DNA of 44,886 bases from Treponema sp. (GTDB lineage Bacteria; Spirochaetota; Spirochaetia; Treponematales; Breznakiellaceae). The stretch's first letter is position 1, and each line of letters begins with the position of its first letter. The position numbers were made by a program, and so were the translations under genes. The stretch is taken from assembly GCA_031272575.1 (NCBI GenBank), contig JAISTO010000036.1, forward strand, positions 1-44,886. The letters run 5' to 3'. The notes under the pieces were generated by a model. The model was given only the letters and a program-made list of their open reading frames with translations, was not told the origin of the DNA and ran no database searches. Below are positions 828-44,745 of this stretch, one piece after another.

Positions 828-1798
828 ATAGCCTTGTTCGGCAGGCCGGTTGGCTGCCTCCAATCAGGCGGGTTTTTGTCTGCGCGTCCGCGCTGCTGAC
901 GGCGTCCTGTCCGCAGAATCCGCTTGACGTTTACAATTATGAAGGCAATAGTTCGGTTGTCGAAGATGCCGCGCCCCTGCATATCTTTCTGATCGGCCTG
1001 GATGGATGGGGGTCTTTCAGTCTTCCGCGGGCCGAGATGCCGGTGATAAAACGCATGATGGAAAACGGCGCATACACGCTGGCAGCCAAGGCGGTCATGC
1101 CCTCCCGAAGCGCGCCGAACTGGGTTTCCATGCTAAGCGGCGTCCCGCCGGCCCTGCACGGGTACACCCAAAACACCGCAAAGCCCCTGTTTACCCCGGC
1201 AATCACCGACGAAGACGGCCGTTATCCCAACGTCATCACGCTCCTGTCGAAATTGCGGCCCGACTGCGCGATAGGCGTTTTTTACGAGTGGGAGGGCATT
1301 GGGGATATTTTCCCTGTTTGCCGCGCCGCCGTGGAAGCGCAGCTTCCGGACCTTTCCTCAAACCGGGAAACGCTGGAACCCATTCTCAATTATATTGACG
1401 GTCTCAGGGCCAGCCTAAGTTTTACCTTTGTGCATTTTGACGGCGCGGATCACGCGGGTCATTCGGCGGGCTACGGTTCTGACGCTTACTACGATATGCT
1501 GCGCGGTCTGGACGGCTTTGTCGGCGAAATTGAACAGGCGGTGAGAGACGCGGGTCTGATGGATAACGCCGTCTTTATTATCAGCGCGGATCATGGCGGA
1601 AAAGGAAACGACCACGGCGCCGATACCATCGAAGAACGGGAAATCCCCCTGATCCTGTACGGAAAGAACATCAAAAGCGGAACCGTCATCCCCGGCCCGG
1701 TGGACATTTACGACATAGCGCCGTCAATAGCGGCCCTGTTCGGCATTTCCCCGCCCACCGTATGGACGGGGAATCGTTTGCCTCTTCAGAACCCGTAA
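824..1798 (+). CDS. alkaline-phosphatase superfamily, type I phosphodiesterase/nucleotide pyrophosphatase (NPP) family
   Basis: Motifs GLDGWGS, SAPNWVSMLSG, HFDGADHAGH and ISADHGGKGNDHG resemble the metal-ligand/nucleophile motifs of this family. Confidence 0.75.
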   Translation: MNSLVRQAGWLPPIRRVFVCASALLTASCPQNPLDVYNYEGNSSVVEDAAPLHIFLIGLDGWGSFSLPRAEMPVIKRMMENGAYTLAAKAVMPSRSAPNWVSMLSGVPPALHGYTQNTAKPLFTPAITDEDGRYPNVITLLSKLRPDCAIGVFYEWEGIGDIFPVCRAAVEAQLPDLSSNRETLEPILNYIDGLRASLSFTFVHFDGADHAGHSAGYGSDAYYDMLRGLDGFVGEIEQAVRDAGLMDNAVFIISADHGGKGNDHGADTIEEREIPLILYGKNIKSGTVIPGPVDIYDIAPSIAALFGISPPTVWTGNRLPLQNP

Positions 1799-3753
1799 CT
1801 CGCGCCCAGCGTGAACTGCGCGTCGAAGGCATTCACCCCCTTGATGTTCCCCTTGTTGGCCACGAACACGAAATCCGCCTGGCCGTAAACAGCAAGGCTT
1901 TTGACGCCGGGCATATCCCGCAGGATGTTCCACGCGCCTGAAAGGGACAGGGCCGTAAGGTAGTAGGGCGCGTTGCGGGCGGCGGCGTTTTCGTCGGCGT
2001 AGTTCCCCTGGTAGTGGTGGTCGGTGGGGGTGCTCTGGTAACCCGGGCGGTTCTGGTAATCACCCGCGGCATCTAAGCCAGCGTCCCAGCCGGCGCTGTT
2101 GTCCTCGATGTCGACCGCCGACCAGCGGGTCCACTTGTCGAAGGTGCCGTGCACCATGAACATGAGGTTGGCGCCGGCGCTCCACTTGCCGAAACTGCGG
2201 TACGCGGCGTTGGCGTTGAGCACGATGGCGTCGCCGCCCCAGCGGTAGCCGAGAAACTCCTCCACAAAGAGAAGCGGGGCGCCATCAGCGGCCGAATAGT
2301 AGCGGTTCGCCACCACATAGTTCAGTTCGCGGTTCTTTTTATTCGCGGTCATGCGCTGGGCGCGGAGGTACAGGTAGGGGTCGGTATAGGCGCCCTCAAA
2401 GGAGCCTGAAAGCATGCCGCCCCAGAGGGGGAAGGCCGTCTTTGCGCCCAGCATGAAGCCAAAGGCGTCGGGGTTGGCGTCGTCATCGGCGCCGGGCGCG
2501 GGCTCGCCGGGCAGGTGAAAGTCGTCCACCGCGATCTGGCCGTAGAGGTTGAGCGCCGGCAGGGCCGCCCAATCCACCTCCAGGCTCAAGAGGGAATTGG
2601 CATCGTAGGTGCGGTACAGGTTGTGCATGAGTATCGTGGGAAGGAAGTACTGCAAGTCCGCCTGCCCATCCTCCGGCTGGTACATGATAGCCTCGGAAAG
2701 GGCCATGTTCACCTTGTTGAATAGGCGCCATTCAAGCCGGTGGGCGATAAAAAAGTTCAGGCCATCGTGCGTCTGGCCGGCATCGTCATTCCAGACCACC
2801 GTCTCATTTTCATCGGTCGTGTAATACTCATTCGGCGAAGGAAAACCGGACACATTGAAAAGGTACTTGAACTGGTCATTGTAGGCCGTAAGGCGGACGT
2901 TGTTGTGATAGTCCACCTGGCTTCCCACCATAAAGTTGCCCGATTCCCCCGGCCCCCAGGAGAGCCGCTCCCGGCCGATTTCCAGGTTGAGGCCGGGCAC
3001 TCCCAGGGAAATAAACGTCCGGTTCGGGAAGTTGAAGTTCAGGTCGTTCAGTGTCGCGGGCGGCACCATGGGGATGTTTGTGCTGAAGGCGGAGGAGCCG
3101 AAAAAGGCCGATCCAACGGATTTTTTGCCGTTCTCGTCGAGAATGGCGTTGTACTTTTCGTTTCCCAGGGAAAACTCCCCGAAGCCGTAGGCGTAGGGCG
3201 TAAGGCGCAGTTCAAAATCCAGGGCCAGGAACGGCTTTGTCAGGTTCATGGGCCGAATGTAGTCGTCCAGGCGGGTAAAATCTTCGGGGTTGCTGTGAGC
3301 GTAGGCCTCGGCCGTCACCGCGCCTGAAAAGGTGAAGGCCCGCGCCGGCGCCTTGAGTGTCCGCTCCGCGTACTCGTAGGCGGCCCGCTCCCCGTCGGCC
3401 AGGTTCTCCGTATCAAGCCGCCCCAGCATGAGCAGCAACTCGTCTTCAGTCCAGGGCCCGGAGGTAGACGGCAGCGCCAGCCCCGCTCTGATATAGAGGG
3501 CTTTGATCGCCTGGTAGACCTCGCTGTCGATGGGGTAGACCTTCTGGTGGTTCCCCGCCTGCGCAAAAGCCGCCTGCGCACACAGCGCAAAGCAGAGCGC
3601 CGCCCCCGCGATTAACGCGCCGCGCCGCTTCCCCCCCCACGCGCCCCATGACGCGCTTTTTTGCGCCACGGGGGGGGGGGGACAAATTTTCACTTTAGAG
3701 AAACTGGACATATTATGAGCGCCCGGTCTCTCCATGTAACATACATTCTGCAT
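1786..3753 (-). CDS. large secreted/outer-membrane protein of unknown function with a C12 tract in its leader
   Basis: Part of ORF 1786..3891. AAAGGAG plus 6 nt precedes ATG 3753. The N-terminus is MQNVCYMERPGAHNMSSFSKVKICPPPPVAQKSASWGAWGGKRRGALIAGAALCFALCAQAAFAQ. The signal peptide lies 3' of the tract and the body is aromatic/Gly-rich. Confidence 0.6.
   Translation of the reverse strand: MQNVCYMERPGAHNMSSFSKVKICPPPPVAQKSASWGAWGGKRRGALIAGAALCFALCAQAAFAQAGNHQKVYPIDSEVYQAIKALYIRAGLALPSTSGPWTEDELLLMLGRLDTENLADGERAAYEYAERTLKAPARAFTFSGAVTAEAYAHSNPEDFTRLDDYIRPMNLTKPFLALDFELRLTPYAYGFGEFSLGNEKYNAILDENGKKSVGSAFFGSSAFSTNIPMVPPATLNDLNFNFPNRTFISLGVPGLNLEIGRERLSWGPGESGNFMVGSQVDYHNNVRLTAYNDQFKYLFNVSGFPSPNEYYTTDENETVVWNDDAGQTHDGLNFFIAHRLEWRLFNKVNMALSEAIMYQPEDGQADLQYFLPTILMHNLYRTYDANSLLSLEVDWAALPALNLYGQIAVDDFHLPGEPAPGADDDANPDAFGFMLGAKTAFPLWGGMLSGSFEGAYTDPYLYLRAQRMTANKKNRELNYVVANRYYSAADGAPLLFVEEFLGYRWGGDAIVLNANAAYRSFGKWSAGANLMFMVHGTFDKWTRWSAVDIEDNSAGWDAGLDAAGDYQNRPGYQSTPTDHHYQGNYADENAAARNAPYYLTALSLSGAWNILRDMPGVKSLAVYGQADFVFVANKGNIKGVNAFDAQFTLGASYGF
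3670..3681. repeat. homopolymer G12 (C12 on the coding strand)
   Basis: 12 consecutive G counted by hand. It encodes PPPP between the start codon and the signal peptide of the 1786..3753 gene and is currently in frame. Confidence 0.9.
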
Positions 3754-5674: not shown

Positions 5675-7361
5675 TCAGCGCCTCTTCTCCCAAAGTGTCT
5701 ATTTCATCCAAAATCGTGTTCATGGCCCGCAGGGTATCCGCGGCCGCCTGGACCTCTTCGGCAAACTGCGCGTCTTTGTTCAGGAAAAACGTCAGGTTGG
5801 CGAGTAAGTTGTGATTCAAGATGCCGTCCAGCGTTGCCGCGACCTCTTCCGCGGCGGTCTGCGCGCTGGCAACCAGATCGGCGGCCTCTTTGGACGCCTT
5901 GTCGACAATGGACCTGATCTGCTGCATCTTGCCCCGGCCCCGTTCCACATCATCCTTCGCCTGCAGGTAGCGGGCGCCGTACTCGCCGTGCGGCGCTATG
6001 CGGCTTTCGAGAAAGCGTATGTCATCCTCTGTTTTGATTAACTCGTTGTAGCGCTCGGTAAAATCCGTGCGGTTTTCGACGCGGTAAAAGACGCCGTTCA
6101 AAATGATCGGTTCTATTATTTTGGTTATGCGCGCGAAAAACACCTCGGTGTTAAAAGTGGACAGGAACGATATGCTGAGTTCGTCTTTGAGCGGGAACCC
6201 GTCGGGGTTATGCACAGAATAGAGATTTTCGAGTAATTTGAGATTTGAGCCGTTCAGTATTTTGCTGAAAGACGCGGCAAGTTCTTTTTTCTTTTGCTCG
6301 GTTGCGCGGCGTTCCAGAGCCGCGTCAATTTGACGTTTCCAATATTCGCGATAGACGGGGAGCCAATCCTCGCCGCCGGTGATGCCGCTGGGAACGAGTT
6401 CGACGTTGCGGTTCCCGCAGCGGAGCACCTGCGTGAGCGGTACATTGCGGTTGAACTCGCGGATGACTTTGAGTGAGTCTTCCGCGCGTTCCAGCAGTAT
6501 AGCAAGTTCCCGATGCAGATCGAGATTGTCATTCATATCCGCTTTCCCCCGCAAAAGAAAAATGAAAAGCGATTCCAGGAGGGGGAGGGGGGGGACCACC
6601 GCAAGCGAGAAAAGGATATCGTTGAGAGCGGAGAGGTAGCCTGAGGTCTGCCCGAACATGGCGGTGCGGCCTTTGCTGACATTCGCGGAAGTGAAGGCGC
6701 TTATCAATTTATCAAAAGGAAAGCCGGACAGTCTTTTTAAACAAAAAAGACAGCGCACATCAAAATACATCTGCGTCCGCTGCTCTTCGGAAATTGAATC
6801 GAACGCTTCGTCGAGCGCCCGCGATGCAAGTTGATGCAGATCCGGTTCCGCGCCTTTGCCGCCGGCAATATCAAAAGTGAGTCCGCGGATTTTTTGTAAC
6901 TGCTTATGCACCGAAGGCATTTCCAGAGAACCCAAAAAACCGAAGAACGCGCCCTTGTCCCGATTGAAGCCTTCGTCCAGCGCCGTGTAAAAAAAGCGCG
7001 AGGCGTTTTTCAGGCGTTCCACCTGCACAGAAAACATACCGAGCAGCAGGTACCTTCGGTAATCGTAAATGCCGGGAAATTGCTTTTCGATAGCCTTACC
7101 CAGTTTTTTTATCTGCCGGTCAGTAAGGAGTTCCGCCTTTGAACGGCCGGTTAAGAGGCTTTTCAAAAAGAGCAAAATTCGCAAAAAAAGTGAAATTCGG
7201 TTGTACGACGTCATAGTCCCCGGATGGGCATACTCCTCCCGGGTTTCATAGAGAAGTTCGGAAGAGATAACCGACCTATCTTTTAATTTTTCGAGCAACT
7301 CCTGTCTTTCTTCGAGCGTCAAATCCGCAATGAGCGCGTCAAAAGTTCCGAACTCAGACAT
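5658..7361 (-). CDS. hypothetical protein (567 aa)
   Basis: Long ORF with an AT-rich upstream region and GGAGGAAAAATG at the start. No motif recognised. Confidence 0.55.
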   Translation of the reverse strand: MSEFGTFDALIADLTLEERQELLEKLKDRSVISSELLYETREEYAHPGTMTSYNRISLFLRILLFLKSLLTGRSKAELLTDRQIKKLGKAIEKQFPGIYDYRRYLLLGMFSVQVERLKNASRFFYTALDEGFNRDKGAFFGFLGSLEMPSVHKQLQKIRGLTFDIAGGKGAEPDLHQLASRALDEAFDSISEEQRTQMYFDVRCLFCLKRLSGFPFDKLISAFTSANVSKGRTAMFGQTSGYLSALNDILFSLAVVPPLPLLESLFIFLLRGKADMNDNLDLHRELAILLERAEDSLKVIREFNRNVPLTQVLRCGNRNVELVPSGITGGEDWLPVYREYWKRQIDAALERRATEQKKKELAASFSKILNGSNLKLLENLYSVHNPDGFPLKDELSISFLSTFNTEVFFARITKIIEPIILNGVFYRVENRTDFTERYNELIKTEDDIRFLESRIAPHGEYGARYLQAKDDVERGRGKMQQIRSIVDKASKEAADLVASAQTAAEEVAATLDGILNHNLLANLTFFLNKDAQFAEEVQAAADTLRAMNTILDEIDTLGEEALSVAKG

Positions 7362-14232: not shown

Positions 14233-15776
14233 TACCAGGTCCCCGGGGTGAGCGTATTGTTCGGATCGTACATATACTCGAGGAGTTCCCGCCAGGTTTC
14301 TACCGTGCCGTTGCAGTTCGAATTCGCCGCCTCAAGATGCCCGTAATAGTAGCCCGGTTTCCATTCATTCGTATCCTCATTTGTGTAAAACCAGTGGTAG
14401 GCGTAGTGACTTTTTCTCTCGTAGATTCTATCCCCCCTGCTGAAAAAGATCGACATACCGTTAGCGATATGCGCCCCCTCGAACACCCCGGGCGAGTGTC
14501 CACTGAGATTGTCCTTCCACGCGAAGAGGACGCCCTCCGCGAGGACGTCCTTTATGTCCTGCGCGGCAGTTTGAATCGCGGTTTCGGTCGTACCTGTAAT
14601 AAACGCATCGCAGAGGCTGCCCAGGTCGTAAAAGGGAAAATGCACACTCTCTTTGTTTTCTTGGGTGTAGGAGACCTCATTTTTGAAGTAGGCAATTTCA
14701 GCCGCTTCGCGTATGGCATTTATTTGCGCCTTGCTTATGTCACTGTTTTTCAACGCCGCTCCCAGTTCCGCCGCAAGAGTATCAACCTTTTCCTTAAGGG
14801 TATCGCATACCGAGAGATCAAACGCGCTGAGACAGTGATCATACGTATCATACCACAGTTCGGTAGACAGTTGGTAGGTGCGGGCCACTTGCTCCGCAAA
14901 ATCGCGGCCTGTGCGTATTTCCATAATTTTCTGAAAAAGCGCGGAATAATTCCAGCCCTTGTACTCGAGGCCCGGCGCGGCCGCCATGTAGGACGCGCAT
15001 TTGCGGAACTGGTACGCGATTTCGTACATAGCCATGTCGCAGTCGTCGAACCCGAGGAGGTCGAGTTTGCTGCCTTCTGAATAAAACTTCTCGAGCACTT
15101 CCTGAATTTCCGCTATAAAGAGCTGCCCATCAAGGCCGTACTCCTTGCTGACCGCATCGTAATCTTCATCGTCCGTGCACACAACCGGACTGGGCCCCGG
15201 CAGGTCGACCCCCTGGGCCTCGGAGTTCCGGGTGATGGTTTTTGCTTTTATTTCCGCGGGAGCAACGCCCCCCCCATGGTTCCACAGGATAAGCGCCTGC
15301 TTCGTACACTGCGGGTACTGCTCCCGCGCCCAGCCGACAAACTGGCGGAGTGTTTCTTTGTTGCCCATGTGCTCTTCGTCATTCGCGCCCGTCCGCCAGG
15401 GGGTCCCCCCAACGCTTGCGCTCAGTATGACACGGGAGTTGATCACGCTGGTGTTGCTGTCCGCCAGCACCTCGTAAAGCCGTGTGCCCTTCCATGCGGT
15501 CCCCCGCGACACGGTACCCTCTTTTATACGGTCGTAGAGCGCGACCACGCGGCACTTTTCCCGTTCCCCCTCCGTGAGGAACGACAGCCCCAGTTCCATG
15601 TTGTTCAGGTCGACAACGCCCTCGCTTTCGAGGCTGTTCGCACCCGCCATATACACCATGATAAGCCAGGGTTCACTGTATTCTATGCTGATATCGACAA
15701 AGAGGGGCTCGCCGCAGCCCCCCGCCAGAAGCGCAAGCGCAAGACAGAGCGAAAGCCCCCCATGGGTTCGTTTCAT
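14232..15776 (-). CDS. clostripain-like (C11) cysteine peptidase lipoprotein
   Basis: Start at MKRTHGGLSLCLALALLAGGC (lipobox). The His/Cys dyad context is ILWNHGGG and LLGFDDCDMA. The longer track ORF runs through tRNA-Leu and is rejected. Confidence 0.7.
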   Translation of the reverse strand: MKRTHGGLSLCLALALLAGGCGEPLFVDISIEYSEPWLIMVYMAGANSLESEGVVDLNNMELGLSFLTEGEREKCRVVALYDRIKEGTVSRGTAWKGTRLYEVLADSNTSVINSRVILSASVGGTPWRTGANDEEHMGNKETLRQFVGWAREQYPQCTKQALILWNHGGGVAPAEIKAKTITRNSEAQGVDLPGPSPVVCTDDEDYDAVSKEYGLDGQLFIAEIQEVLEKFYSEGSKLDLLGFDDCDMAMYEIAYQFRKCASYMAAAPGLEYKGWNYSALFQKIMEIRTGRDFAEQVARTYQLSTELWYDTYDHCLSAFDLSVCDTLKEKVDTLAAELGAALKNSDISKAQINAIREAAEIAYFKNEVSYTQENKESVHFPFYDLGSLCDAFITGTTETAIQTAAQDIKDVLAEGVLFAWKDNLSGHSPGVFEGAHIANGMSIFFSRGDRIYERKSHYAYHWFYTNEDTNEWKPGYYYGHLEAANSNCNGTVETWRELLEYMYDPNNTLTPGTW

Positions 15777-35524: not shown

Positions 35525-38500
35525 TCAAAACGCCCGCACAGGCCGAACCTGACCAGGAATGTCCTTCATGATGTAAGACAAGATCAGGTCATTCGAACTG
35601 CCATCGGAATTCAGACACCATGCATAGCTTCTGTTGCTCTCGGATGAAGACGCGTATATGGGCCAAATATTCGTAAAGTTTCCAGCCCCCTGCTGTTTCA
35701 GATTGATGTTCATCTGATTTATCTCATCCTTGCTCGGCAGGAACCAGTCATCGTAACCGCCGTACTCGTAATCCGCACAGGCCTGCGCCGCAAGGTGTAA
35801 GCCAGAACCTAACTGAGGTGTGCCATGATTATGCGTTACCAATGCAGCTGTGTTTGTTGCGCCTGTACCGATATCTGTCCCGGTACCGCCACACAATGTG
35901 CCATATCCACCCCACTGGTATGCTGTTGCCAAATCGGCAGGCGCGGCTTCGAGGTAATGGCAAGTAATGCTGTCAGAAACAAAACCGGTGGTGTCGGCAT
36001 AGAATATCCATCCTCCCGCAGGACCAGTATCCCCTATCTGGTATGCCAGGGTTGTCTGACTCACAGCAGCACTCAATGCGCCTTCTCCTTCCGCGTTCAC
36101 CGCGCTTACCTTGTAGTAATAAGTTGTTTCTTTTGTAAGACCAGTGTCGGTATACGAAGTTTCAGTAATGCCTGAAGTAATAGGAGTAGTGTAGGGACCA
36201 TCAACGCTGTCTGCCCGATAGACCGTGTAGGTGTCTGCACCAGTCACCGCATTCCAGTTAAGTACTAATATGCTGCTCAGGGATTGCGCGGCCGCGGTTA
36301 ATCCATCAGGCGCGCCAGGTTTTGTGATTGTGTTCACTACGGTACTGTAATCGGTGACCACTGTATCGTGCCATGCCTTCACCCACACATAGTAAGTCGT
36401 TCCGTTTGAAAGACCGGTAAGCGTATGCGGACTGGTCACCACGCTCAGCCTCACCGCCGCACTAGAGATATTTGCGGTGTGATAATACAGGTCATACGCG
36501 GCGGCGCCGTCCGTGCTGTCCCACGAAACCTGTATGCTCTCGTCAGATAAAGTAACCGCGTTTACCCCGGTGGGCGCGGCAGGAGCGGGAACTCCGCTTG
36601 CGCTTGCGCTCAATGGGCTTTCCCCCAGAGCGTTCTTCGCTTTCAACCACACATAGTACAGCGTCCCGATGTTAAGATCGGCAATGACATGGGGTATCGT
36701 GACATCGCTTTCCTTCGTTGCGGCAGTGCTGTCATTCGTTGTACTGTAATAGAGATCATATCCTGTCGCGCCATCAACCTCTGTCCATGTTACCATGAGT
36801 CCACCCACACCCGCTGGGGTTACCTCGATCGCGGTTGGTGCATTTACGCGAGTCTTCCCGCTCGCGCTCGCGAACGCGCCGGTTATCGCGCCGTGCAGTG
36901 CCCGCACCCACACCGAGTAAGTCGTGTTCGCGGCGAGGCCGCTGAGCGTCGCGTTTATTGCCGCGGCCTCGACGCTCTGCGCCGTGTCGGGGCTGCTTCC
37001 GGTGCTGTAACGCACCTCGTACTTTTCCGCGCCGGCTATGGCGTCCCACGAGACCGCGAGTGAGGTATTGCTGAGCGGCGCGGCCTGCACGTTGGCGGGC
37101 GCGGGCGCGGTTGTGGTCACCTCTATCGTGTCCGTCCACAGCGCGCCCCCGTTGTTGAACGTGAGCGTGAGCGGCAGCACGGTTCCCATGGGGCAGCCGG
37201 CGCTTGCGCTAAAGGTGAAGGTTCCATATAGGCTTCCCCCGTAAAAGAACACTATATTCGCGTTCGTGCTCTGCGTGCTGTTGAGCGTTTTATAGTAACC
37301 GCCGGACAGATTTCCGACCGACAGTATAGTATTTTGACCGATGGTAATATACTCACTCTCTGACGAAAGCGTCACCTGGGCGCTGGAGATAGTGGTCGTT
37401 GTATTGTTCTTTATACGAATGTCCAAATACGCTGACGCGCCGGGAGTCACATTAACGATATTCTTATCGATGAGCTCCTTCAAAGCAAAACCGGTTATCG
37501 ACAGGGGATAGGGCGCGGTGTTTCCCAGCGTTACGGTGCAGCAGTCAATATCGTTTTCATGGATGTCCGCCATAATCTGCCCGTCAAGAAGAGTCGCGTC
37601 CGCCTCGGTATCATTGGGTTCATTGATCTTGAACGCGCTAAACGAGGAGAAGTTCGTCTGCGGCATCGTGTTTATGCCGAGTGAATAGATCGCCTCGCTG
37701 GATTCGGCGGTGCCGGAAATTACGGCAAGGTAAGGCGCTGACGACCAGGGCATGGTCACGCTTGAACGATAGACCGTCCCGTCATGCGCGGTGCTGAACC
37801 GACACGCGCCGGAGAGCGGGCTCAGAATAAGGCCCGCCACGGGGTACTGTGACGCGGCGTTGAAAGTTACCGGCGTTTTGAAAAAGCGCACGGACACCGA
37901 GTCCGTCCAGGTTTTGGGATGCTGCGGATCGGTCGTGGCATCGGTTATCGTAATGGAGATTTTTTTGAAGACCGCATCCGCGTCAACCGGCGTACAGCCG
38001 ATGGTTATTTCGCTGGTGGACACGGTCTCGCCCGGCTTAAGGGTCCCGGTGCAGAGCCGATTCGATATGCCGGACTGCGTTTGCGTTGCAAGTCCGTCCT
38101 CAAACGCAAGCGTGTAACTCGGCGCGTAGCAGCCCGCGTTTCCCGTGTTGGTCACGTTGATGGTGAAGGTGAACGTGTCGGCCCCCGCGTACCCATACCG
38201 CGCGTTGACCGACGTGCCTGCCGGCGCGATGCGCGCTGGCGCGATGCGCGCCTTGAAGTTAACGCCCCCGCCCGTGAGGTGGAGCGTCCCGAGGTGGTCA
38301 CCGTTCGCGCCGGGCGTTACGCGCGCGGTGTCACCTGCGGCGCGCAGTTCGTACTCGTCCCCCGGGATAAGGCCCTGCGCGGTAAAGGTGCCGTCGCTTG
38401 CGGTTGTTGCCGTCACCGTGTTGGCCGCGTCGTTCAGGTTGACCAGAGTCACCTCGAGGCCTGCGACGCTCCGCCCCGCGCCGGCGTCAGCGAGTGTGCC

Positions 38501-38806
38501 GCTCACCTGCGCGTTGGCGACCCGCGAGGCGTAGAGGAAGCACGCGCTGCCCGCATTCGTCACCCTGATGACCCGCGCGGACTGCTTTTCGAGGCGCGGC
38601 GTCCCGGGGTAGGATTCGCCGTTTACGGTGATGGTATTGCTGGTAATGTACCACGCTTCGTCCGCGTCTATGCGGAGCCATTCACCCCAAAACTCGCTCC
38701 CGTAGCGGGGGCCGGTTTCGGAGCCGGTAGGGGTTTTACACGCCGCCCCGCAGAGGACGGCGAGCGCGAGGAGGAGTCCCCGTTTTACGCGATTTTTTGC
38801 AGGACG
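35525..38806 (-). CDS. giant surface lipoprotein: CarboxypepD_reg-like domain, four Fn3 repeats, C-terminal DUF1566-like domain; 5' end interrupted by C11 tract
   Basis: The track ORF 35525..38563 starts at GTG. The frame stays open upstream to the tract and there encodes RPAKNRVKRGLLLALAVLCGAACK (lipoprotein signal). Four repeats of about 90 aa have the Fn3 pattern (L.V.W....GA..Y.+YY....Y.V.V.A). The tail YDDWFLPSKDEINQM resembles DUF1566. Confidence 0.8.
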   Translation of the reverse strand, partial: RPAKNRVKRGLLLALAVLCGAACKTPTGSETGPRYGSEFWGEWLRIDADEAWYITSNTITVNGESYPGTPRLEKQSARVIRVTNAGSACFLYASRVANAQVSGTLADAGAGRSVAGLEVTLVNLNDAANTVTATTASDGTFTAQGLIPGDEYELRAAGDTARVTPGANGDHLGTLHLTGGGVNFKARIAPARIAPAGTSVNARYGYAGADTFTFTINVTNTGNAGCYAPSYTLAFEDGLATQTQSGISNRLCTGTLKPGETVSTSEITIGCTPVDADAVFKKISITITDATTDPQHPKTWTDSVSVRFFKTPVTFNAASQYPVAGLILSPLSGACRFSTAHDGTVYRSSVTMPWSSAPYLAVISGTAESSEAIYSLGINTMPQTNFSSFSAFKINEPNDTEADATLLDGQIMADIHENDIDCCTVTLGNTAPYPLSITGFALKELIDKNIVNVTPGASAYLDIRIKNNTTTTISSAQVTLSSESEYITIGQNTILSVGNLSGGYYKTLNSTQSTNANIVFFYGGSLYGTFTFSASAGCPMGTVLPLTLTFNNGGALWTDTIEVTTTAPAPANVQAAPLSNTSLAVSWDAIAGAEKYEVRYSTGSSPDTAQSVEAAAINATLSGLAANTTYSVWVRALHGAITGAFASASGKTRVNAPTAIEVTPAGVGGLMVTWTEVDGATGYDLYYSTTNDSTAATKESDVTIPHVIADLNIGTLYYVWLKAKNALGESPLSASASGVPAPAAPTGVNAVTLSDESIQVSWDSTDGAAAYDLYYHTANISSAAVRLSVVTSPHTLTGLSNGTTYYVWVKAWHDTVVTDYSTVVNTITKPGAPDGLTAAAQSLSSILVLNWNAVTGADTYTVYRADSVDGPYTTPITSGITETSYTDTGLTKETTYYYKVSAVNAEGEGALSAAVSQTTLAYQIGDTGPAGGWIFYADTTGFVSDSITCHYLEAAPADLATAYQWGGYGTLCGGTGTDIGTGATNTAALVTHNHGTPQLGSGLHLAAQACADYEYGGYDDWFLPSKDEINQMNINLKQQGAGNFTNIWPIYASSSESNRSYAWCLNSDGSSNDLILSYIMKDIPGQVRPVRAF

Positions 38807-38816
38807 GGGGGGGGGG
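38806..38816. repeat. homopolymer G11 (C11 on the coding strand)
   Basis: Counted by hand: 5 G ending line 38801-38810 plus 6 G starting 38811. It lies between the candidate start codons and the lipoprotein signal peptide. Confidence 0.9.
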
Positions 38817-39003
38817 CAAATTGATTCAGTTGTTGCTCTGACGCTGGAGATTTTCGAGAAAATGCCCGCCGCGCCGTCTCAGCGGGAGGGACCGCGAGAC
38901 AGGCAAAAAGAGCGCCGCCTGCCGCGAAGCGGGGGGCGCGGGCAGTCCGAGGGACTGCGACAGCCGCCAAGGCTGCCAAGGAAAAGATATTTTTCATATT
39001 GGA

Positions 39004-39032
39004 AGTATAGCGGGGTTTTGGGGGAAAGTCAA
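39004..39032 (-). promoter_or_regulatory. consensus promoter in leaderless layout, reading toward the lipoprotein gene
   Basis: Minus strand reads TTGACT, 17 nt, TATACT, 6 nt, ATG 38997. Confidence 0.5.
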
Positions 39033-39054
39033 GAGGGCACGATGCCCTCTTGAC
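39028..39054. promoter_or_regulatory. perfect 12-3-12 palindrome carrying back-to-back -35 hexamers
   Basis: gtcaagagggca-cga-tgccctcttgac. The left arm supplies TTGACT on the minus strand and the right arm supplies TTGACA on the plus strand. Confidence 0.6.
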
Positions 39055-39140
39055 ACTAATCTGCTTTTTAGTGCAAAATAAAGAGACATCGCGATGCTGC
39101 GCAGGCAGCACTAATCTTGAATGGCGCTCAAGGAGCATAT

Positions 39141-40495
39141 ATGGCTAATTTTAGGCAAGGGCAAGTTATCCCCCTGGCGGGGGGGGGGGCGAGGCAGAAA
39201 TTGTTCGCACTTTGGGGGAGGGCGGACAAGGCACGGTGTATGAGGTTCGCGTTGGCGGTAAGCCTTATGCGCTGAAATGGTACCACGCGGGAAAACTGAA
39301 GGACAAAGCGGCCTTTCGCGAAAACCTTCGATGCAATATCGAAGAGCCGGAGCGGAGCATGGCGGATTGTCCCATGTTTCTGTGGCCCAAGTTCCTGACT
39401 GAGGAACAGGACGGCAGTTTCGGGTATGTGATGGACCTGCGGCCGCCGGACTACACTGATTTTCCGGCGATTCTGAATCGCAAGGACCGAAAGGGGCAGC
39501 GGGTGGAGTTTGCCTCCACCGAAACAATGATCGCTGCCGCCTTGAATCTGGTGAACGCTTTCCGCGCGCTGCATCGCAAGGGGCTTTCCTACCAGGATTT
39601 AAACGACGGAAACTTCTTCATCAATATTGATACAGGAGCCGTGCTGATTTGTGACAACGACAATGTCACGCCGGACGGCGACGTAAACTCAGGCGGCATA
39701 GGGGGCAAACCCGGGTACATGGCGCCGGAAATTGTCACAGGCAAGGCGCAGCCTTCCGAGCGTACCGATTGCCATTCACTCGCGGTTGTTCTTTTCAAAT
39801 TATTCTTTCGTCATAGTCCGCTGCAAGGGGCGGCTTACGAAAAACTTCCCTGCATGACCGAAAAGCGCGAGATGGAACTGTTCGGGACGAATCCGGTATT
39901 TGTCTACGATCCGGATGATGATACAAACCGGCCGGTCAACGGCGTACACAACAATGTGATAAAACTCTGGCCGCTCTTCCCCGCGTTTTTCAAAGACGCG
40001 TTTGTTCTCTCGTTTGCTCAAGGGATGAAAGCCCCGCAGCGCCGCATCGTCGAAAACGAGTGGCAAAAAATCCTCGTGCGTCTCCGCGACGAATGGTATG
40101 TTACCTGCGTGTCCTGCGGGCGCGCCATTTTTCTGCACCCGGAAAACAAAGAGGCGGGGCTTCGCTGCGGCGGCTGCGGGTCACAGTCTACCTATCCGCG
40201 AAGCCTTTCTATCAAGAAGGGCGCACTCGTGTACACGGTGCCGCTCTTCCCCGCAAAAAAACTCTACGACTGGCACACCACCGAGTCGAGTGAAGACTTC
40301 ATCACCATAACGGGCGAAGTGGTGATGAATAAAAACAATCCCTCGCTTTGGGGAATCAAGAATTGCTCAAACGAGGCGTGGCGCATGGTCACCCCCGACG
40401 GCACAGCAAAAGAAGTGCCCGCCGAGGGCGCTGTTCCTATCGGGGCGGGCGTTAAGGTCATCTTTAACGGCCTTGACGGAATAATAACTCAGTAA
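39141..40495 (+). CDS. Ser/Thr protein kinase with C-terminal zinc ribbon; frameshifted at G11 tract (track ORF 39212..40495)
   Basis: AGGAG plus 5 nt precedes ATG 39141. After the tract a different frame encodes GEAEIVRTLGEGGQGTVYEVRVGGKPYALKWY (Gly-rich loop and Lys), HRKGLSYQDLNDGN, GKPGYMAPE and CVSC...CGGC. A +1 change in the tract joins the two frames. Confidence 0.8.
39179..39189. repeat. homopolymer G11
   Basis: Counted by hand: 2 G ending 39171-39180 plus 9 G starting 39181. It begins in codon 13 of the kinase reading frame that starts at ATG 39141. Confidence 0.9.
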
Positions 40496-40510
40496 AGGAG
40501 AATCTCAAAA

Positions 40511-41242
40511 ATGAGTGACGCAATTTACGGCAATGTGGAGGGCATCATACGCAGGCAGATGGTGCTGTTCTTTTTAATTGACACCTCCGGCAGTATGCAG
40601 GGGCAGAAAATCAGCGCGGTCAATACGGCCATCCGCGAAGTGGTACCGGAACTGGCGGACATCGGGGGCGCGGACATCGATCTGAAGATCGCGGTGCTTG
40701 AGTTTTCGATGGGCTGCAAATGGCAGAACCCCGCGGGGCCCGTATCGGTGGACGATTTCATGTGGAACAACCTCAGCGCGGAAGGCGGCACCGATATGGG
40801 AACGGCCTTTCGGGAATTGAACGAGCGCCTCTCGCGCAACTCGTTTCTAAAAGCGCCGTCGGCATCGGTCGCGCCGGTGATACTGCTCCTTTCGGACGGC
40901 CAGCCGAGTGACGATTACCAAAGCGCGCTTGCCGCCCTCAAAAACAACAACTGGTTTAAGAGCGCGGTAAAAGTCGCGCTCGCTATTGGCAGTGACGCTG
41001 ACTGCAATGTACTCGCGGAATTCACCGGCACCAGCGAAACCGTGCTTAGCGCCTATACGCCGGATATCCTGCGCAAGATGATACGCACCGTGTCGATTAC
41101 CTCCGCGCAGATCGGTTCCCGCAGCCAGCCCTTACAGGAAGGGGATATTGTGAGCAAGCAGGACACCATGGCAGCGGAGATCAAAAATCTCAAGCAGACG
41201 GATCCGGATTACAATTCCGCGGATACGCTGGAAGGCTGGTAA
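40511..41242 (+). CDS. von Willebrand factor A domain protein (TerY-like)
   Basis: MIDAS motif in FFLIDTSGSMQG, later GGTDMG and LLSDGQPSD. AAAGGAG SD. Confidence 0.85.
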   Translation: MSDAIYGNVEGIIRRQMVLFFLIDTSGSMQGQKISAVNTAIREVVPELADIGGADIDLKIAVLEFSMGCKWQNPAGPVSVDDFMWNNLSAEGGTDMGTAFRELNERLSRNSFLKAPSASVAPVILLLSDGQPSDDYQSALAALKNNNWFKSAVKVALAIGSDADCNVLAEFTGTSETVLSAYTPDILRKMIRTVSITSAQIGSRSQPLQEGDIVSKQDTMAAEIKNLKQTDPDYNSADTLEGW

Positions 41243-42105
41243 TGTACCTCAGTTTTAGCGCCCGCGCACAGGGGGACAGCCACAAGGAAAAGGACATCCC
41301 CTGCCAGGATGCGGTCTTCACGTACGTCGATCAAAAGACCGGCGGCCTCGCGATTGTGGCAGACGGCCATGGAAGCGAAAAACACTTTCGCAGCGACGTG
41401 GGATCTGCACTTGCGGTTACTGTTGCGCATACGACAATCGTGGAGTTCCTTCATATATTGAATGATGGCTCCATGCGCCGCGGTGCATTTGACCAGCGCT
41501 ATACCGATGAAATCACCATGATGCAGGAGCAACTGGCGCAGCTTGAACGGACGATTATTACGCGGTGGCGTTCCGCGGTACTGCAGCATTTTGCGGCACA
41601 CCCGCTCAGCGAGCGTGAACAGGCACTCTGTACGCGGGAAAACCTTACGCTCACCGATGAGGATGCACAGGTCCGTGTGTACGGTACGACTCTTATTGCC
41701 GCACTCGCGCATAGCAAGTTGTGGTTTGTCATTCAGATCGGGGACGGCAAATGCGTAGTGCTTGATGACGAAGGCACTCCGTATTTCCCGCCGGAACTCG
41801 ACGATGAAAGTCTTGCCGGAGGCCAGACGACTTCCCTGTGCGACTCGGATGCGGCAGGTCATTTTCGCTGTGATTTCGGCTTCGAGCGCATTAAGGGCAT
41901 TACCGTGGCCACCGACGGCGTAAGCGACTCTTTTTTGCCCGAGGAGTATCTCAAACTGAATGCCCGTCTCTTTGCCGATTTTCTCGCTAACCACAAGAAG
42001 GCGCAAAAGGGGGTGGAGCAGTCTATTGCGGTATGGTCAACAAAAGGCTCCCGCGATGATGTATCCATGGCGGGAGTCTTTTACAAAAATGGTTTATTGG
42101 AGTGA
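41242..42105 (+). CDS. PP2C-family protein phosphatase
   Basis: IPCQDAV, LAIVADGHGS and VATDGVSD motifs. The start overlaps the vWA stop (TAATG). Confidence 0.8.
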   Translation: MYLSFSARAQGDSHKEKDIPCQDAVFTYVDQKTGGLAIVADGHGSEKHFRSDVGSALAVTVAHTTIVEFLHILNDGSMRRGAFDQRYTDEITMMQEQLAQLERTIITRWRSAVLQHFAAHPLSEREQALCTRENLTLTDEDAQVRVYGTTLIAALAHSKLWFVIQIGDGKCVVLDDEGTPYFPPELDDESLAGGQTTSLCDSDAAGHFRCDFGFERIKGITVATDGVSDSFLPEEYLKLNARLFADFLANHKKAQKGVEQSIAVWSTKGSRDDVSMAGVFYKNGLLE

Positions 42106-42120
42106 AAGGAGAAGTATAGC

Positions 42121-43368
42121 ATGAACACGAATTTGTTAACCGCGATAAAGGCGTTGGCGGCGAAGGGCGCTGATGTGTTTAGTGACCTGAAGCGCGTTGA
42201 CGAAAGTCTGCCGGTGTTTGCCAACAAGGAGGCTGCGGCAGAGCGCAGGGCTTTTCTTGCGGTGCTGGCATCGGGGCTTCCCGCGAAGTTGCGCGAGACC
42301 AAGGATACCGCGGCGCGCGCAAGTCTGGTCAACCGGGCCGCGCATTCGCTTTCCGGCGCGAACGAGGCGCCGCCAGCGCTGGCGCGGGAAATCGCCGCGC
42401 TCGTCGAGGCCCTCTGTCCCGCAAAAAGCGCCGCTGCCTCGCCCCCCGCGCCGCCGGTACCGCCGCGGCAGGTTCCGGCCGCGGGGGCGCCGCTGCCGCA
42501 AAGTCCCGAGGCGGCCAAGCCGCCAGCGCGGGCCCTGCGGCTGAGCCGAAAAACGGTGTTTTTCGCTCTTGCGGCAACGGGAGGTGGGCTCGTTACCGAA
42601 AGTATCTGTGAGTGCATACCGTGGTTTAACCAGCATGGGGGGACTTTTTGGTCGGTCATTGTTGAGACTGCCGTATGGTTTGGGGTGATTGCACTGGGCT
42701 TAATCGCGTGTCTTCTCGCGGCCCAGAGTGGGTATCTGAAAAAGCCGCCGAGCGCCCCCACTGTGGTAAAGGCGGTGCTTTTGGGAGTCCTTTCCGGCGC
42801 GGCCGCTGGCGGGCTTGCACAAGCGGTGTTTGCATACACTTCGCAGATTTCAACGGCAGTAGAAATCGTCAGCCGCATACTCTGCTGGGGCTTTGCGGGC
42901 GCGGGGGTAGGGCTTGGTACGAGTTTCTTCGTTCCCAACTATCCGATAAAGCGCTCCCTGCCCGCCGGACTCGTTGGGGGGCTTTTGGGGGGCGTGCTGT
43001 TCCGCGCCTCATTCGGCATTATGCCGGAAGGCATCGCCCGGGTAGTGAGCATCGCCATTCTGGGGCTGTGCATAGGCGCGACTATCGCCATAGCCGAGGA
43101 AATCCTCCGTGAAGCATGGATCACGGTTGACTGGGGGCACAACGAACGCGTGAATGTCACGCTCGGTACCAGGCCGGTGGTACTTGGTTCCGCGCCGGAA
43201 GCGGACATCTTTCTTTCGCGGCAGAACTATCCTGCGGTTGCGCTTGTCGTCAGTATAGACGGACAAAAAGTGATTGTCGACAACAAACTGAACGGCCAAC
43301 GAACCGAAATGGCAAACGGCAGCGAGTTGAGTTTGGGGACAGTCAAAGTTACCGTACACAAACGGTAA
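42121..43368 (+). CDS. membrane protein: shared N-terminal domain, Pro/Ala linker, multi-TM region, C-terminal FHA domain
   Basis: Hydrophobic segments between about residues 150 and 330. The C-terminus VVLGSAPEADIFLSRQNYPAVALVVSIDGQKVIVDNKLNGQRTEMANGSEL has the FHA pattern. SD AAAGGAG. Confidence 0.75.
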   Translation: MNTNLLTAIKALAAKGADVFSDLKRVDESLPVFANKEAAAERRAFLAVLASGLPAKLRETKDTAARASLVNRAAHSLSGANEAPPALAREIAALVEALCPAKSAAASPPAPPVPPRQVPAAGAPLPQSPEAAKPPARALRLSRKTVFFALAATGGGLVTESICECIPWFNQHGGTFWSVIVETAVWFGVIALGLIACLLAAQSGYLKKPPSAPTVVKAVLLGVLSGAAAGGLAQAVFAYTSQISTAVEIVSRILCWGFAGAGVGLGTSFFVPNYPIKRSLPAGLVGGLLGGVLFRASFGIMPEGIARVVSIAILGLCIGATIAIAEEILREAWITVDWGHNERVNVTLGTRPVVLGSAPEADIFLSRQNYPAVALVVSIDGQKVIVDNKLNGQRTEMANGSELSLGTVKVTVHKR

Positions 43369-43383
43369 CAAAAGGAGCATACT

Positions 43384-44745
43384 ATGAACACAGTGTTATT
43401 GACCGTCATTCAAAAAATGGTCGCTGAGTCAGGCGAATCGGTACTTGCTGACTCGCGGCGTGTTGCAGGTTACCTTGCGGATTTTGCCGCCAGGGAGCCG
43501 AAGGCGCAGCGGAACACGCTGGTGAAGTGCCTGGAACAGGGGGCTTACGCCGCGCTGAAAAGGGCTGCTCCCCATGAGCGCGGCGCGGTGAAGGAGCGGC
43601 TGGCGCGCAGGCTGCATACCGATGAGGGGTTTGATCGGTCTCTCTGTGAAGACAGCGTCAACCTGCTGGCCGTTGTGTTGTTCGGTCACGGCGAAGCGGC
43701 TGCGGGGGAAACCGCGGCGGCAATTCCGTCTACGGGGGACGAGTGGGTAACGGTACCGGAAGCGCGGAAGGCGGCGTTGGCGCAGGGGGATGCGGGCAAC
43801 AGGCCAATACCGCAAACTGCCGTGGCGAGGAAGGAACGGAAACGGTACTTGTCAGTGGGGATAGCGGCTTCCGTGCTTGTGCTTGGACTGGGTGTTGTCT
43901 TTTGGATGAACCGATACAACAATGCGGGCAACGCATCCCACCTTGGTCCAACTTTGGACATGGTGCGCATACAGGGTGGCACGTTCACGATGGGGAGCCC
44001 GTCGTCGGAGCCGGATCGTGAGGACGATGAGGTGCAGCATCGGGTGACGCTGAGTTCGTTTTACATGGGGAAGTACGAGGTCACTCAGAAGGAGTGGCAG
44101 GCGCTCATGGGGACGAATCCCAGTTCCTTCAAGGGTGACAACTTGCCGGTGGAGTGCGTGAGTTGGTACGATGCGGTGGAGTACTGTAACGCGCGTAGCA
44201 AAAAAGAAGGGCTTACGCCTGCGTACACGATAAATAAGACTCGACAGGATCCAAACAACACCAGCAGTTATGACAGTCTCAAGTGGACGGTGACCTGGAA
44301 CCGGAAGGCGAACGGGTACCGGTTGCCGACGGAGGCGGAGTGGGAGTACGCCTGCCGCGCCGGGACGACGGGGCCGTTCAACACGGGGAACAACATTACG
44401 ACGAGCCAGGCGAACTATAACGGGAACTATCCCTACAACGGGAACGCGAAGGGGCAGTATCGGGAGAAGACGACGGCGGTGGGGAGTTTCCAGCCCAATG
44501 CCTGGGGCTTGTACGATATGCATGGCAATGTCTGGGAGTGGTGCTGGGACTGGTACGGGAATTACTCAAGCGGCGCCCAGACGGACCCCGAAGGCCCAAC
44601 GGGCCCCGCCTCTTCGTGGTCGCGCCGCGTTCGCCGGGGCGGCAGTTGGTACAACAGCGGCCAGTACCTGCGTTCGGCCAACCGGGGCTACTACAGCCCG
44701 GGCAACCGGCTCTACTACCTCGGTTTTCGGCTGGTGCGTCCCTGA
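43384..44745 (+). CDS. membrane-anchored FGE-sulfatase (SUMF1/C-type-lectin fold) domain protein with DGR-VR-like C-terminus
   Basis: Shared N-terminal domain, one TM (YLSVGIAASVLVLGLGVVFWM), then GGTFTMGSP, YRLPTEAEWEYACRAG, GNVWEWCWDWY and RGGSW...GFRLVRP. Confidence 0.85.
   Translation: MNTVLLTVIQKMVAESGESVLADSRRVAGYLADFAAREPKAQRNTLVKCLEQGAYAALKRAAPHERGAVKERLARRLHTDEGFDRSLCEDSVNLLAVVLFGHGEAAAGETAAAIPSTGDEWVTVPEARKAALAQGDAGNRPIPQTAVARKERKRYLSVGIAASVLVLGLGVVFWMNRYNNAGNASHLGPTLDMVRIQGGTFTMGSPSSEPDREDDEVQHRVTLSSFYMGKYEVTQKEWQALMGTNPSSFKGDNLPVECVSWYDAVEYCNARSKKEGLTPAYTINKTRQDPNNTSSYDSLKWTVTWNRKANGYRLPTEAEWEYACRAGTTGPFNTGNNITTSQANYNGNYPYNGNAKGQYREKTTAVGSFQPNAWGLYDMHGNVWEWCWDWYGNYSSGAQTDPEGPTGPASSWSRRVRRGGSWYNSGQYLRSANRGYYSPGNRLYYLGFRLVRP

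Follow-up and report, generated by a model that had tools for sequence, protein, structure and literature searches.

The window examined here, a contig of 44,886 bp and 58% G+C from an uncultured Treponema (JAISTO010000036.1, taken in its entirety, with ~45 kb of the genome visible), carries on its minus strand a large lipoprotein gene whose signal peptide is separated from the start codons upstream of it by a run of eleven C residues (G11 on the plus strand). We suggest that this run is the switch of a slipped-strand translational contingency locus that has been assembled in its OFF state, a reading to which we assign a probability of about 0.6. A locus is counted as being of this kind when a G/C homopolymer of ~8 nt or more lies between a start codon and an essential part of the open reading frame (ORF). 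Four of the five features of a contingency locus were found in silico, and the fifth, variation in tract length, is one that we infer. Because two further long tracts lie at the 5' ends of genes in the same window, one of them also out of frame, this reading is the best of those considered. A sequence-only reading of the same DNA had already proposed a layout of phase variation; the layout itself, the frame arithmetic, the single lesion and the companion tracts all speak for it, whereas length variation is a prediction. The proteins encoded in the window are on record at NCBI and JGI/IMG, and their nearest named relatives come from metagenome-assembled genomes (MAGs) of Treponema and Spirochaetaceae.

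On the minus strand, a sigma-70-like promoter (TTGACT-N17-TATACT, 39004..39032) that matches the consensus at 10 of 12 positions is followed, 6 nt after its -10 box, by a leaderless-type start, ATG 38997 (38995..38997). The frame of this ATG runs for 60 codons, enters the C11 tract (38806..38816), which encodes Pro codons in every frame and is putatively hypermutable, and continues as A-P-P-P-V-L-Q-K-I-A to a stop at 38787-38785. Directly 3' of the tract the lipoprotein frame reads RPAKNRVKRGLLLALAVLCGAACKTP, and this frame is open from a stop at 38881-38879 to the stop at 35525. The promoter with its ATG, the 60-codon upstream frame that ends at 38785-38787 by way of C11, and the lipoprotein signal 3' of the tract, continuous with the large ORF, had all been described in the sequence-only reading and are found as described; the signal is also shared by homologues. 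Immediately upstream of the tract, the five letters ATTTG (38817..38821) hold two overlapping candidate starts, ATT 38821-38819 and TTG 38819-38817, neither with a Shine-Dalgarno (SD) sequence. The C11 tract thus separates both ATG 38997 and TTG 38819 from the signal peptide. In the lipoprotein frame, no ATG, GTG or TTG occurs between the stop at 38881-38879 and GTG 38563, and no start of canonical or near-cognate type was found between the tract and the signal peptide.

Rebuilding the tract in silico at other lengths gave exactly the outcome that had been claimed for it. At 9 or 12 units, ATG 38997 is fused to the lipoprotein and the product has 1,156 or 1,157 aa (the fusion is also obtained at 15); at 10 or 13, TTG 38819-38817 comes into frame and the product, which begins MPPPRPAKNRVKRG..., has 1,097 or 1,098 aa; at 11, only dead ends of 70 aa and 27 aa are left. 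A change of one unit in the tract therefore toggles the gene between full-length and truncated product. The accompanying statement, that the signal peptide cannot be translated as assembled, is correct for canonical starts and too strong for near-cognate ones, since three table-11 starts of that class lie upstream in the lipoprotein frame (ATT 38863, ATC 38851 and ATT 38821). ATT 38821 adjoins the tract directly and is in frame with the lipoprotein at G11 and G14, so that the OFF state may be leaky.

The stranded signal peptide can be recognized as the true 5' end of the gene because homologues open with the same elements. The lipoprotein ORF (35525..38806, minus strand) is intact over 1,093 codons and encodes an N-terminal family domain, a CarboxypepD_reg-like domain, four FN3 domains and an Lcl_C-like C-terminus, yet annotators call only a 1,012-aa version that begins at GTG 38563. 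Its homologues, drawn from JGI, ENA and NCBI assemblies, are ~40% identical over the N-terminal half, and the two named by NCBI belong to a Treponema sp. MAG and a Leptospirales MAG. Eight of the ten that were fetched open with M-K-K/R, a hydrophobic stretch, [AGS]-C, a short linker and EFWGEW[LI]RMDTG-WYI, the counterpart of the last motif in the window being EFWGEWLR. Their starts align column for column with VKRGLLLALAVLCGAAC...EFWGEWLRIDADEAWYI and VKRGLLLALAVLCGAAC...GSEFWGEWLRIDADEAWYI of the window. Judged from these alignments, the signal peptide is shown to be the ancestral N-terminus of the protein. Codon usage points the same way. On a codon-usage score trained on window genes, on which true frames reach 0.51 +/- 0.18, the 60-80 codons just 3' of the tract score 0.44-0.46 and the other two frames -0.4 to -0.55. 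Taken together, the homologue N-termini and the coding score indicate that the 1,012-aa record is an N-terminally truncated call. Throughout the 1,093 codons there is no other stop or frameshift, and the gene therefore carries a single lesion, namely that at the tract.

The signal peptide itself (PAKNRVKRG-LLLALAVL-CGAAC, encoded at 38738..38805, coding score 0.44-0.46) has a basic n-region (KNRVKRG), a hydrophobic core and a Cys, and the homologues carry clear [AGS]-C lipoboxes at the aligned site. With a Cys at -4, it presumably departs from the strict PROSITE-type lipobox pattern. The distance of the lipobox Cys from the N-terminus, which in lipoprotein precursors is at most ~35 residues, depends on the start that is used. 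Lipoprotein homologues in other spirochaete contigs have an SD sequence and an ATG, and no tract. The closest relative (P0002/P0065, from a Treponema sp. MAG, MDR1788179.1, on a 26,912-bp contig) is annotated without its first ~130 residues, the signal peptide included. A comparison of P0065 with the lipoprotein gives a mosaic, with identities of 80-92% over residues ~100-200, 26-56% over ~200-550 and 65-90% over ~550-1050. On sequence comparison, this pattern hints at a hypervariable exposed region and at another disrupted 5' end. The lipoprotein gene also contains an exact 15-nt tandem duplication (38223-38251) that encodes ARIAP-ARIAP. A PDB search with the lipoprotein sequence matched only the FN3 domains.

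The start at ATG 38997 lies almost at the predicted 5' end of the transcript, and this geometry recurs in the window. A strict promoter scan (TTGACN-N16-18-TAnnnT) returned seven matches in the window, three of which have an ATG at offset 6 (38997, 15776 and 44818); ATG 171, which opens a signal-peptide ORF, follows a fourth, looser promoter at offset 7. The arrangement of a -10 box, 6-7 nt and an ATG is thus present at three other real genes, 171(+), 15776(-) and 44818(+). At any one offset an ATG is expected by chance in 1 of 64 cases, so this organism seems to initiate translation on leaderless mRNAs habitually. ATG 38997 conforms to the arrangement and has the look of a genuine leaderless start at the predicted transcription start site (TSS). 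Of these genes, that of ATG 15776 encodes a clostripain-like lipoprotein, and the products from both ATG 171 and ATG 15776 carry signal peptides. In the region of the focal locus, two promoter-like sites were observed against 0.2 expected, and the promoter scan found no second promoter near the tract. The frame of ATG 38997 is the only one open to the tract, for which the estimated chance over 60 codons at this composition is ~0.12.

The leader between ATG 38997 and the tract (38817..38994, minus strand) is open in the frame of the ATG. Two terminator-like hairpins with U-rich tails lie within it (38932-38915 and 38886-38865, minus strand), and its fold is modestly stable (z = -2.26). A riboswitch or other known RNA was considered and set aside, as an Rfam scan of the leader gave no match near threshold.

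Support for a contingency locus also comes from the company that the focal tract keeps. The window has three G/C runs of at least 11 nt, where 0.07 would be expected from extrapolation of run lengths and 0.28 from a third-order Markov model. In 300 simulations a count of three was never attained, and the run lengths have a gap at 10. In the 45 kb sampled, all three lie at the 5' ends of genes, namely those of the lipoprotein, an outer-membrane-like protein and a TerY-P-like kinase. Each follows a strong start by 12-60 codons (SD-ATG 39141, SD-ATG 3753 and the leaderless-type ATG 38997). Each is in frame at 12, and both OFF loci stand one step off, at 11.

The second of these tracts is a G11 run on the plus strand (39179..39189), which occupies codons 13-16 of the divergent Ser/Thr kinase gene (39141..40495, plus strand). 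This gene has an SD sequence at 39130-39135, begins at ATG 39141 and is the first of a kinase-VWA-PP2C operon. As assembled, it is frameshifted after codon 16: from AAGGAG-N5-ATG 39141 the sequence reads MANFRQGQVIPLAGGG, after which it passes out of the kinase frame (...EAEIVRTLGEGGQGTVYEV...). More than 100 homologues of 430-458 aa cover 96-100% of the protein repaired to G12. The nearest, at 66-70% identity, open with M-x-E-F-Q-x-G-x-R-I-x-L-x-G-G-G-E-A, and their genes are intact. The kinase is in frame at 9 (the ancestral spacing) or 12 and broken at 11. In relatives at 70% identity the Gly-Gly-Gly is encoded as GGC GGC GGG/GGT, with no tract, and we conclude that the kinase tract arose in this lineage. 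The operon (39141-44745, plus strand) encodes the kinase, a VWA protein with a weak TerY match, a PP2C phosphatase, a protein of unknown function and a protein with an FGE-sulfatase domain. Its kinase-VWA-PP2C composition matches that of the 'TerY-P triad' (PMC4978471). In three relatives (L002-L004) the kinase-VWA-PP2C core is kept and the neighbours differ. PADLOC and NCBIfam searches with the kinase operon and the lipoprotein gave only sub-threshold generic kinase matches and the weak TerY match. Between the two divergent transcription units, a perfect 12-nt inverted repeat (GTCAAGAGGGCA-cga-TGCCCTCTTGAC, arms at 39028-39039 and 39043-39054) holds both -35 boxes, and this palindrome may be an operator common to the lipoprotein gene and the kinase operon.

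The third tract, C12 on the coding strand (3670..3681, minus strand), lies at the 5' end of the outer-membrane-like gene 1786..3753 and is in frame with SD-ATG 3753. From AAGGAG-N5-ATG 3753 the gene runs through 24 codons, PPPP, 11 codons and a G8 run (3638-3631) before reaching KRRGALIAGAALCFALCAQA, in frame as assembled. Its homologues, of 590-630 aa, end in ...LGLSYSF and resemble outer-membrane beta-barrel proteins; their first residues are those of the signal peptide, which in the window lies ~40 residues past ATG 3753. Within this gene, ATG 3649 is in frame only at G7 or G10. A GTG right after the tract was considered as a start: it is possible in gene 1786..3753, but the codon at this place in the focal gene is GTC and in another frame.

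These two genes share more than a tract. A cassette of ~45 nt, AAsTGAA..AATTTG-Cn-GTnnnGCAAAAAAnCGCGT, encloses both the focal tract (38787..38831) and that of gene 1786..3753 (3651-3695), in each case on the minus strand. Its consensus, AAsTGAA(..)AATTTG(T)-Cn-GTnnnGCAAAAAAkCGCGT, has two matches in the window against 0.00 expected. A metagenome scan with the cassette pattern gave five matches, all of them chance, unrelated and in different GC contexts, and a stricter pattern gave no match in GTDB genomes. The signal peptides 3' of the two cassettes are alike (KRGLLLALAVLCGAAC vs KRRGALIAGAALCFALCA).

We propose the following mechanism. The G11/C11 run would be a stretch prone to slipped-strand hypermutation within the transcript, and ribosomes would have to read through it to reach the signal peptide. 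Gain or loss of one G at replication would bring the signal peptide, and with it a mature protein of 1,070 residues, into or out of frame, and such switching would be heritable and reversible. The assembled length of 11 (class 3n+2) would be OFF, or nearly so. Lengths of class 3n (9, 12) would be ON from ATG 38997, probably at the 5' end of a leaderless mRNA, and lengths of class 3n+1 (10, 13) could be ON by way of TTG 38819, which abuts the tract. Both ON classes would yield the same mature protein, as everything upstream of the lipobox Cys would be cut off with the signal peptide. We infer, in addition, that the tract varies in length in the population, that one or both of these starts are in use, that an extended n-region is tolerated and that the lipoprotein is exposed at the surface.

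Several observations weigh against this proposal. The 60-codon leader has a coding score of -0.17, as low as only 1 of 320 true-frame windows (0.3%), when the N-terminal 60-codon stretches of 13 real window genes score 0.25-0.78; it appears non-coding in all three frames. Initiation at ATG 38997 would also place the hydrophobic core ~75 residues from the N-terminus. TTG 38819 would give a conventional n-region of 14 residues but lacks an SD sequence, and most genes in the window carry one of AGGAG type. At the column of the homologue Met, the focal gene has GTA 38788-38786 followed by AAA 38785-38783, neither of which is a start, and the gene may thus have lost its original start. Furthermore, no second copy of the lipoprotein locus was found in any collection searched, so that length variation stays a prediction. 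Some of these points may be reconciled with the proposal. If the n-region extension is removed by signal peptidase II, the leader would not need a coding-like composition, and if the gene has lost its ancestral start, it has to be translated from a start further upstream, by reading across the tract. For licA, starts in two frames can both operate (PMC2212159).

A last objection is that two of three tracts standing at -1 is also what would be expected from a systematic undercall of homopolymers by one, which accounts for it as well as a single slippage step from an ON length does. Under this explanation the focal tract really has 12 (or 10) G, the sampled population carries an intact gene with no sign of OFF cells, and the split was introduced in sequencing or assembly. 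Long G runs are error-prone on short-read platforms, and both out-of-frame tracts are exactly one short of 12, the length at which each gene meets its best start, while the third tract has 12 and is in frame. The OFF length of the focal tract comes from a single assembly. Logan, an independent k-mer assembly of run SRR14710912, contains a contig (L001, 3,611 nt, corresponding to 38847-42457 of the window) that stops 31 nt, or one k-mer, before the focal tract and so leaves the focal length without independent confirmation; this end could reflect a branch in the graph or a drop in coverage. The same contig nevertheless reproduces the kinase G11, with 0 mismatches over 3,611 nt. Since the kinase tract has 11 G under two assemblers, 11 should be the modal read length there rather than an assembler glitch. 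Moreover, the C12/G12 run at 3670-3681 was assembled at its in-frame length on the same contig as the focal tract. We therefore regard a miscount as unlikely, though it deserves to be taken seriously, and even then the locus would still be a slippage-prone tract in a frame-critical position. It is a good deal more doubtful that G11 is not OFF at all but leaky, with the tract setting the level of expression through initiation at AUU 38821-38819, +1 slippage of tRNA-Pro on CCC-C after TTG, or slippage of RNA polymerase. ATT 38821 does abut the tract in the lipoprotein frame at G11, the cassette in gene 1786..3753 likewise has an ATT in the signal-peptide frame as assembled, and, together with ATG 38997 and TTG 38819, the ATT provides some start upstream of the tract in every frame; CCC-C is, in addition, a known context for +1 frameshifting. 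However, AUU starts are very rare and weak, ATT 38821 has no SD sequence, and an ATT in frame in both cassettes has a chance probability of ~1 in 9.

The loss of the homologue Met site could also be taken to mean that the gene is a decaying pseudogene, unexpressed and disrupted by loss of its own start, by the frameshift or by both, with the tract being incidental. The absence of an SD sequence near the signal peptide and the shortened annotation of P0002/P0065, which lacks ~130 residues, would fit such decay. Yet a frame of 1,093 codons without further stop or frameshift, with a coding signature right up to the tract, is not what a decaying gene would be expected to leave; the pattern of a single lesion at a tract recurs in the neighbouring conserved kinase gene, and long tracts are enriched specifically at 5' ends. 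We consider decay very improbable. Least credible of all is transcriptional control of the Treponema pallidum type, in which a tract in or next to the promoter tunes transcription by its length. This idea has a treponemal precedent in the poly-G runs of the tprE/G/J/L and tp0126 promoters (PMC7864442), and in the window itself a C9 run with CCCCACT repeats stands directly upstream of the -35 box of another gene (90-126). But the only promoter-like site on the strand of the lipoprotein gene is that at 39032-39004, and the focal tract lies 188 nt downstream of its -10 box. There is also no canonical start between the tract and the signal peptide, and a transcript begun at the tract could therefore not encode the signal peptide.

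A translational contingency locus of the kind that we favor has several known counterparts. In Neisseria gonorrhoeae, pilC1 and pilC2 carry a poly-G run within the signal-peptide sequence, and frameshifts there switch a surface protein on and off (PMC13017665). The focal locus resembles pilC in having a G run early in the coding sequence, where the export signal of a predicted surface protein is specified. It differs in that its tract belongs to an extended n-region that precedes the point at which homologues begin, in that the organism is an uncultured Treponema for which switching is predicted, and in that the canonical start is absent, with two alternative upstream starts in different frames instead. 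The opa genes of Neisseria are switched by slipped-strand changes in CTCTT repeats in the leader-peptide region (PMC3960869). Like these, the focal repeat would sit in a cleaved leader, where the frame can change without altering the mature protein; the opa repeat is, however, a pentanucleotide in the hydrophobic core of the leader, whereas that of the lipoprotein is a mononucleotide run before the core, and opa is a multigene family of ~11 copies, whereas here only the ~45-nt cassette is common to two unrelated genes. In Haemophilus influenzae, CAAT repeats of licA are preceded by initiation codons in two of the three frames (PMC2212159). The likeness here is that two of the three frames have a start ahead of the repeat, which gives two ON classes and one OFF. 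In contrast, licA has a tetranucleotide repeat, encodes a cytoplasmic enzyme and uses ATG starts with ordinary leaders, while one start of the lipoprotein is of leaderless type and the other is a TTG without SD.

The comparison with tpr genes of T. pallidum, which the sequence-only reading had drawn, stands as a treponemal precedent for poly-G control. In tprE/G/J/L and tp0126, envelope protein genes, the G runs measure 7-12 nt and vary in length within isolates (PMC7864442), and the focal locus shares with them the genus and the association of a G run with an envelope-type gene. As an analogy it is weaker, since the focal tract lies ~190 nt past the only promoter-like site, and pilC, opa and licA come closer. 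The tracts of T. pallidum are in promoters, either between the -35 and -10 boxes or shortly before the TSS, and affect transcription, whereas the focal tract is ~180 nt downstream of the predicted TSS and would act on the reading frame. Given the same genus but a different mechanism, we do not file the locus with the promoter poly-G tracts of T. pallidum, a class that also takes in the porA/opc type of N. meningitidis. A further parallel is provided by the 'phasomes' of Campylobacter and Helicobacter, in which, as reported (PMC6321876, PMC2823697), each genome has several G/C tracts, 8-13 nt long, that occur preferentially in the 5' coding regions of surface-structure genes. As described there, assemblies capture a mix of ON and OFF lengths, as does the window; those genomes are, however, AT-rich and their tracts experimentally validated, whereas the window has 58% G+C and offers 45 kb to view.

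It would be tempting to go further and see an organized phasome in the window. In this scheme, three G tracts of 11-12 nt, each some dozens of unconstrained codons past a strong start and each ON at 12, would form one system, and the cassette (AATTTG-Cn-GT...GCAAAAAA.CGCGT) would be a portable element that has been placed around two of them. ATT, TTG and the upstream AUG, leaderless or SD-driven, would then supply a start of different strength in each frame, so that tract length would work as a dial with three levels on exported proteins in place of an on/off switch. The lipoprotein switch would be arranged divergently to a TerY-P-like kinase operon, itself controlled by a tract, with a palindromic operator common to both. 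This idea is highly speculative, and we think it improbable in its entirety.

If the focal tract does vary, the range of homopolymer-based translational phase variation would grow beyond T. pallidum and the mucosal pathogens in culture, and would take in a Treponema of relatively high G+C content that is uncultured and known only from a metagenome. The lipoprotein would in that case probably be under fluctuating selection, imposed for example by a host, phage or predators, and the kinase tract would suggest that a kinase/VWA/PP2C module of TerY-P type can be switched stochastically. Because the mechanism is a textbook one, the gain is in scope and in annotation rather than in principle. Both genes are mis-annotated as N-terminally truncated, the lipoprotein at 1,012 aa vs ~1,097-1,157 aa and the kinase at 427 aa vs ~451 aa. 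At tracts of this kind, pipelines drop signal peptides and catalytic loops without notice, and too few exported and surface proteins are therefore called in MAGs. What is distinctive here is the leaderless-type start, the cassette common to two genes, and a second, accompanying candidate switch in an operon whose kinase-VWA-PP2C make-up is that of the TerY-P triad.

Searches for the locus in other material gave little. The kinase and the lipoprotein of this organism were found in no other sample among the collections searched. A protein-guided scan of the metagenome_contigs and genome_contigs collections with the first 424 residues returned no match, the window included, as the source project lies outside both. 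The leader peptide has no match among 5.8 billion proteins. A 183-aa query fused at G12, comprising the leader and the in-frame N-terminus, had no protein match at E <= 0.01, and by this search neither an in-frame variant nor a conserved leader peptide is on record. A literature search turned up no paper that names the runs or samples.

Shorter repeats also occur elsewhere in the window. Two G/C runs of 8 nt lie mid-gene and in frame, at 15268-15275 and 6587-6594; they encode, respectively, the HGGG motif of the clostripain-like (Peptidase_C11) lipoprotein and part of VVPPLPLL in a DUF5312 protein, and can serve as internal controls for homopolymer error. Near the left end of the contig, at 90-126 on the plus strand, 4.6 copies of CCCCACT run into the C9 tract and adjoin the -35 box (TTGACG) of a secreted-protein gene (171-827), where they are possibly a variable element that acts at the level of the promoter.

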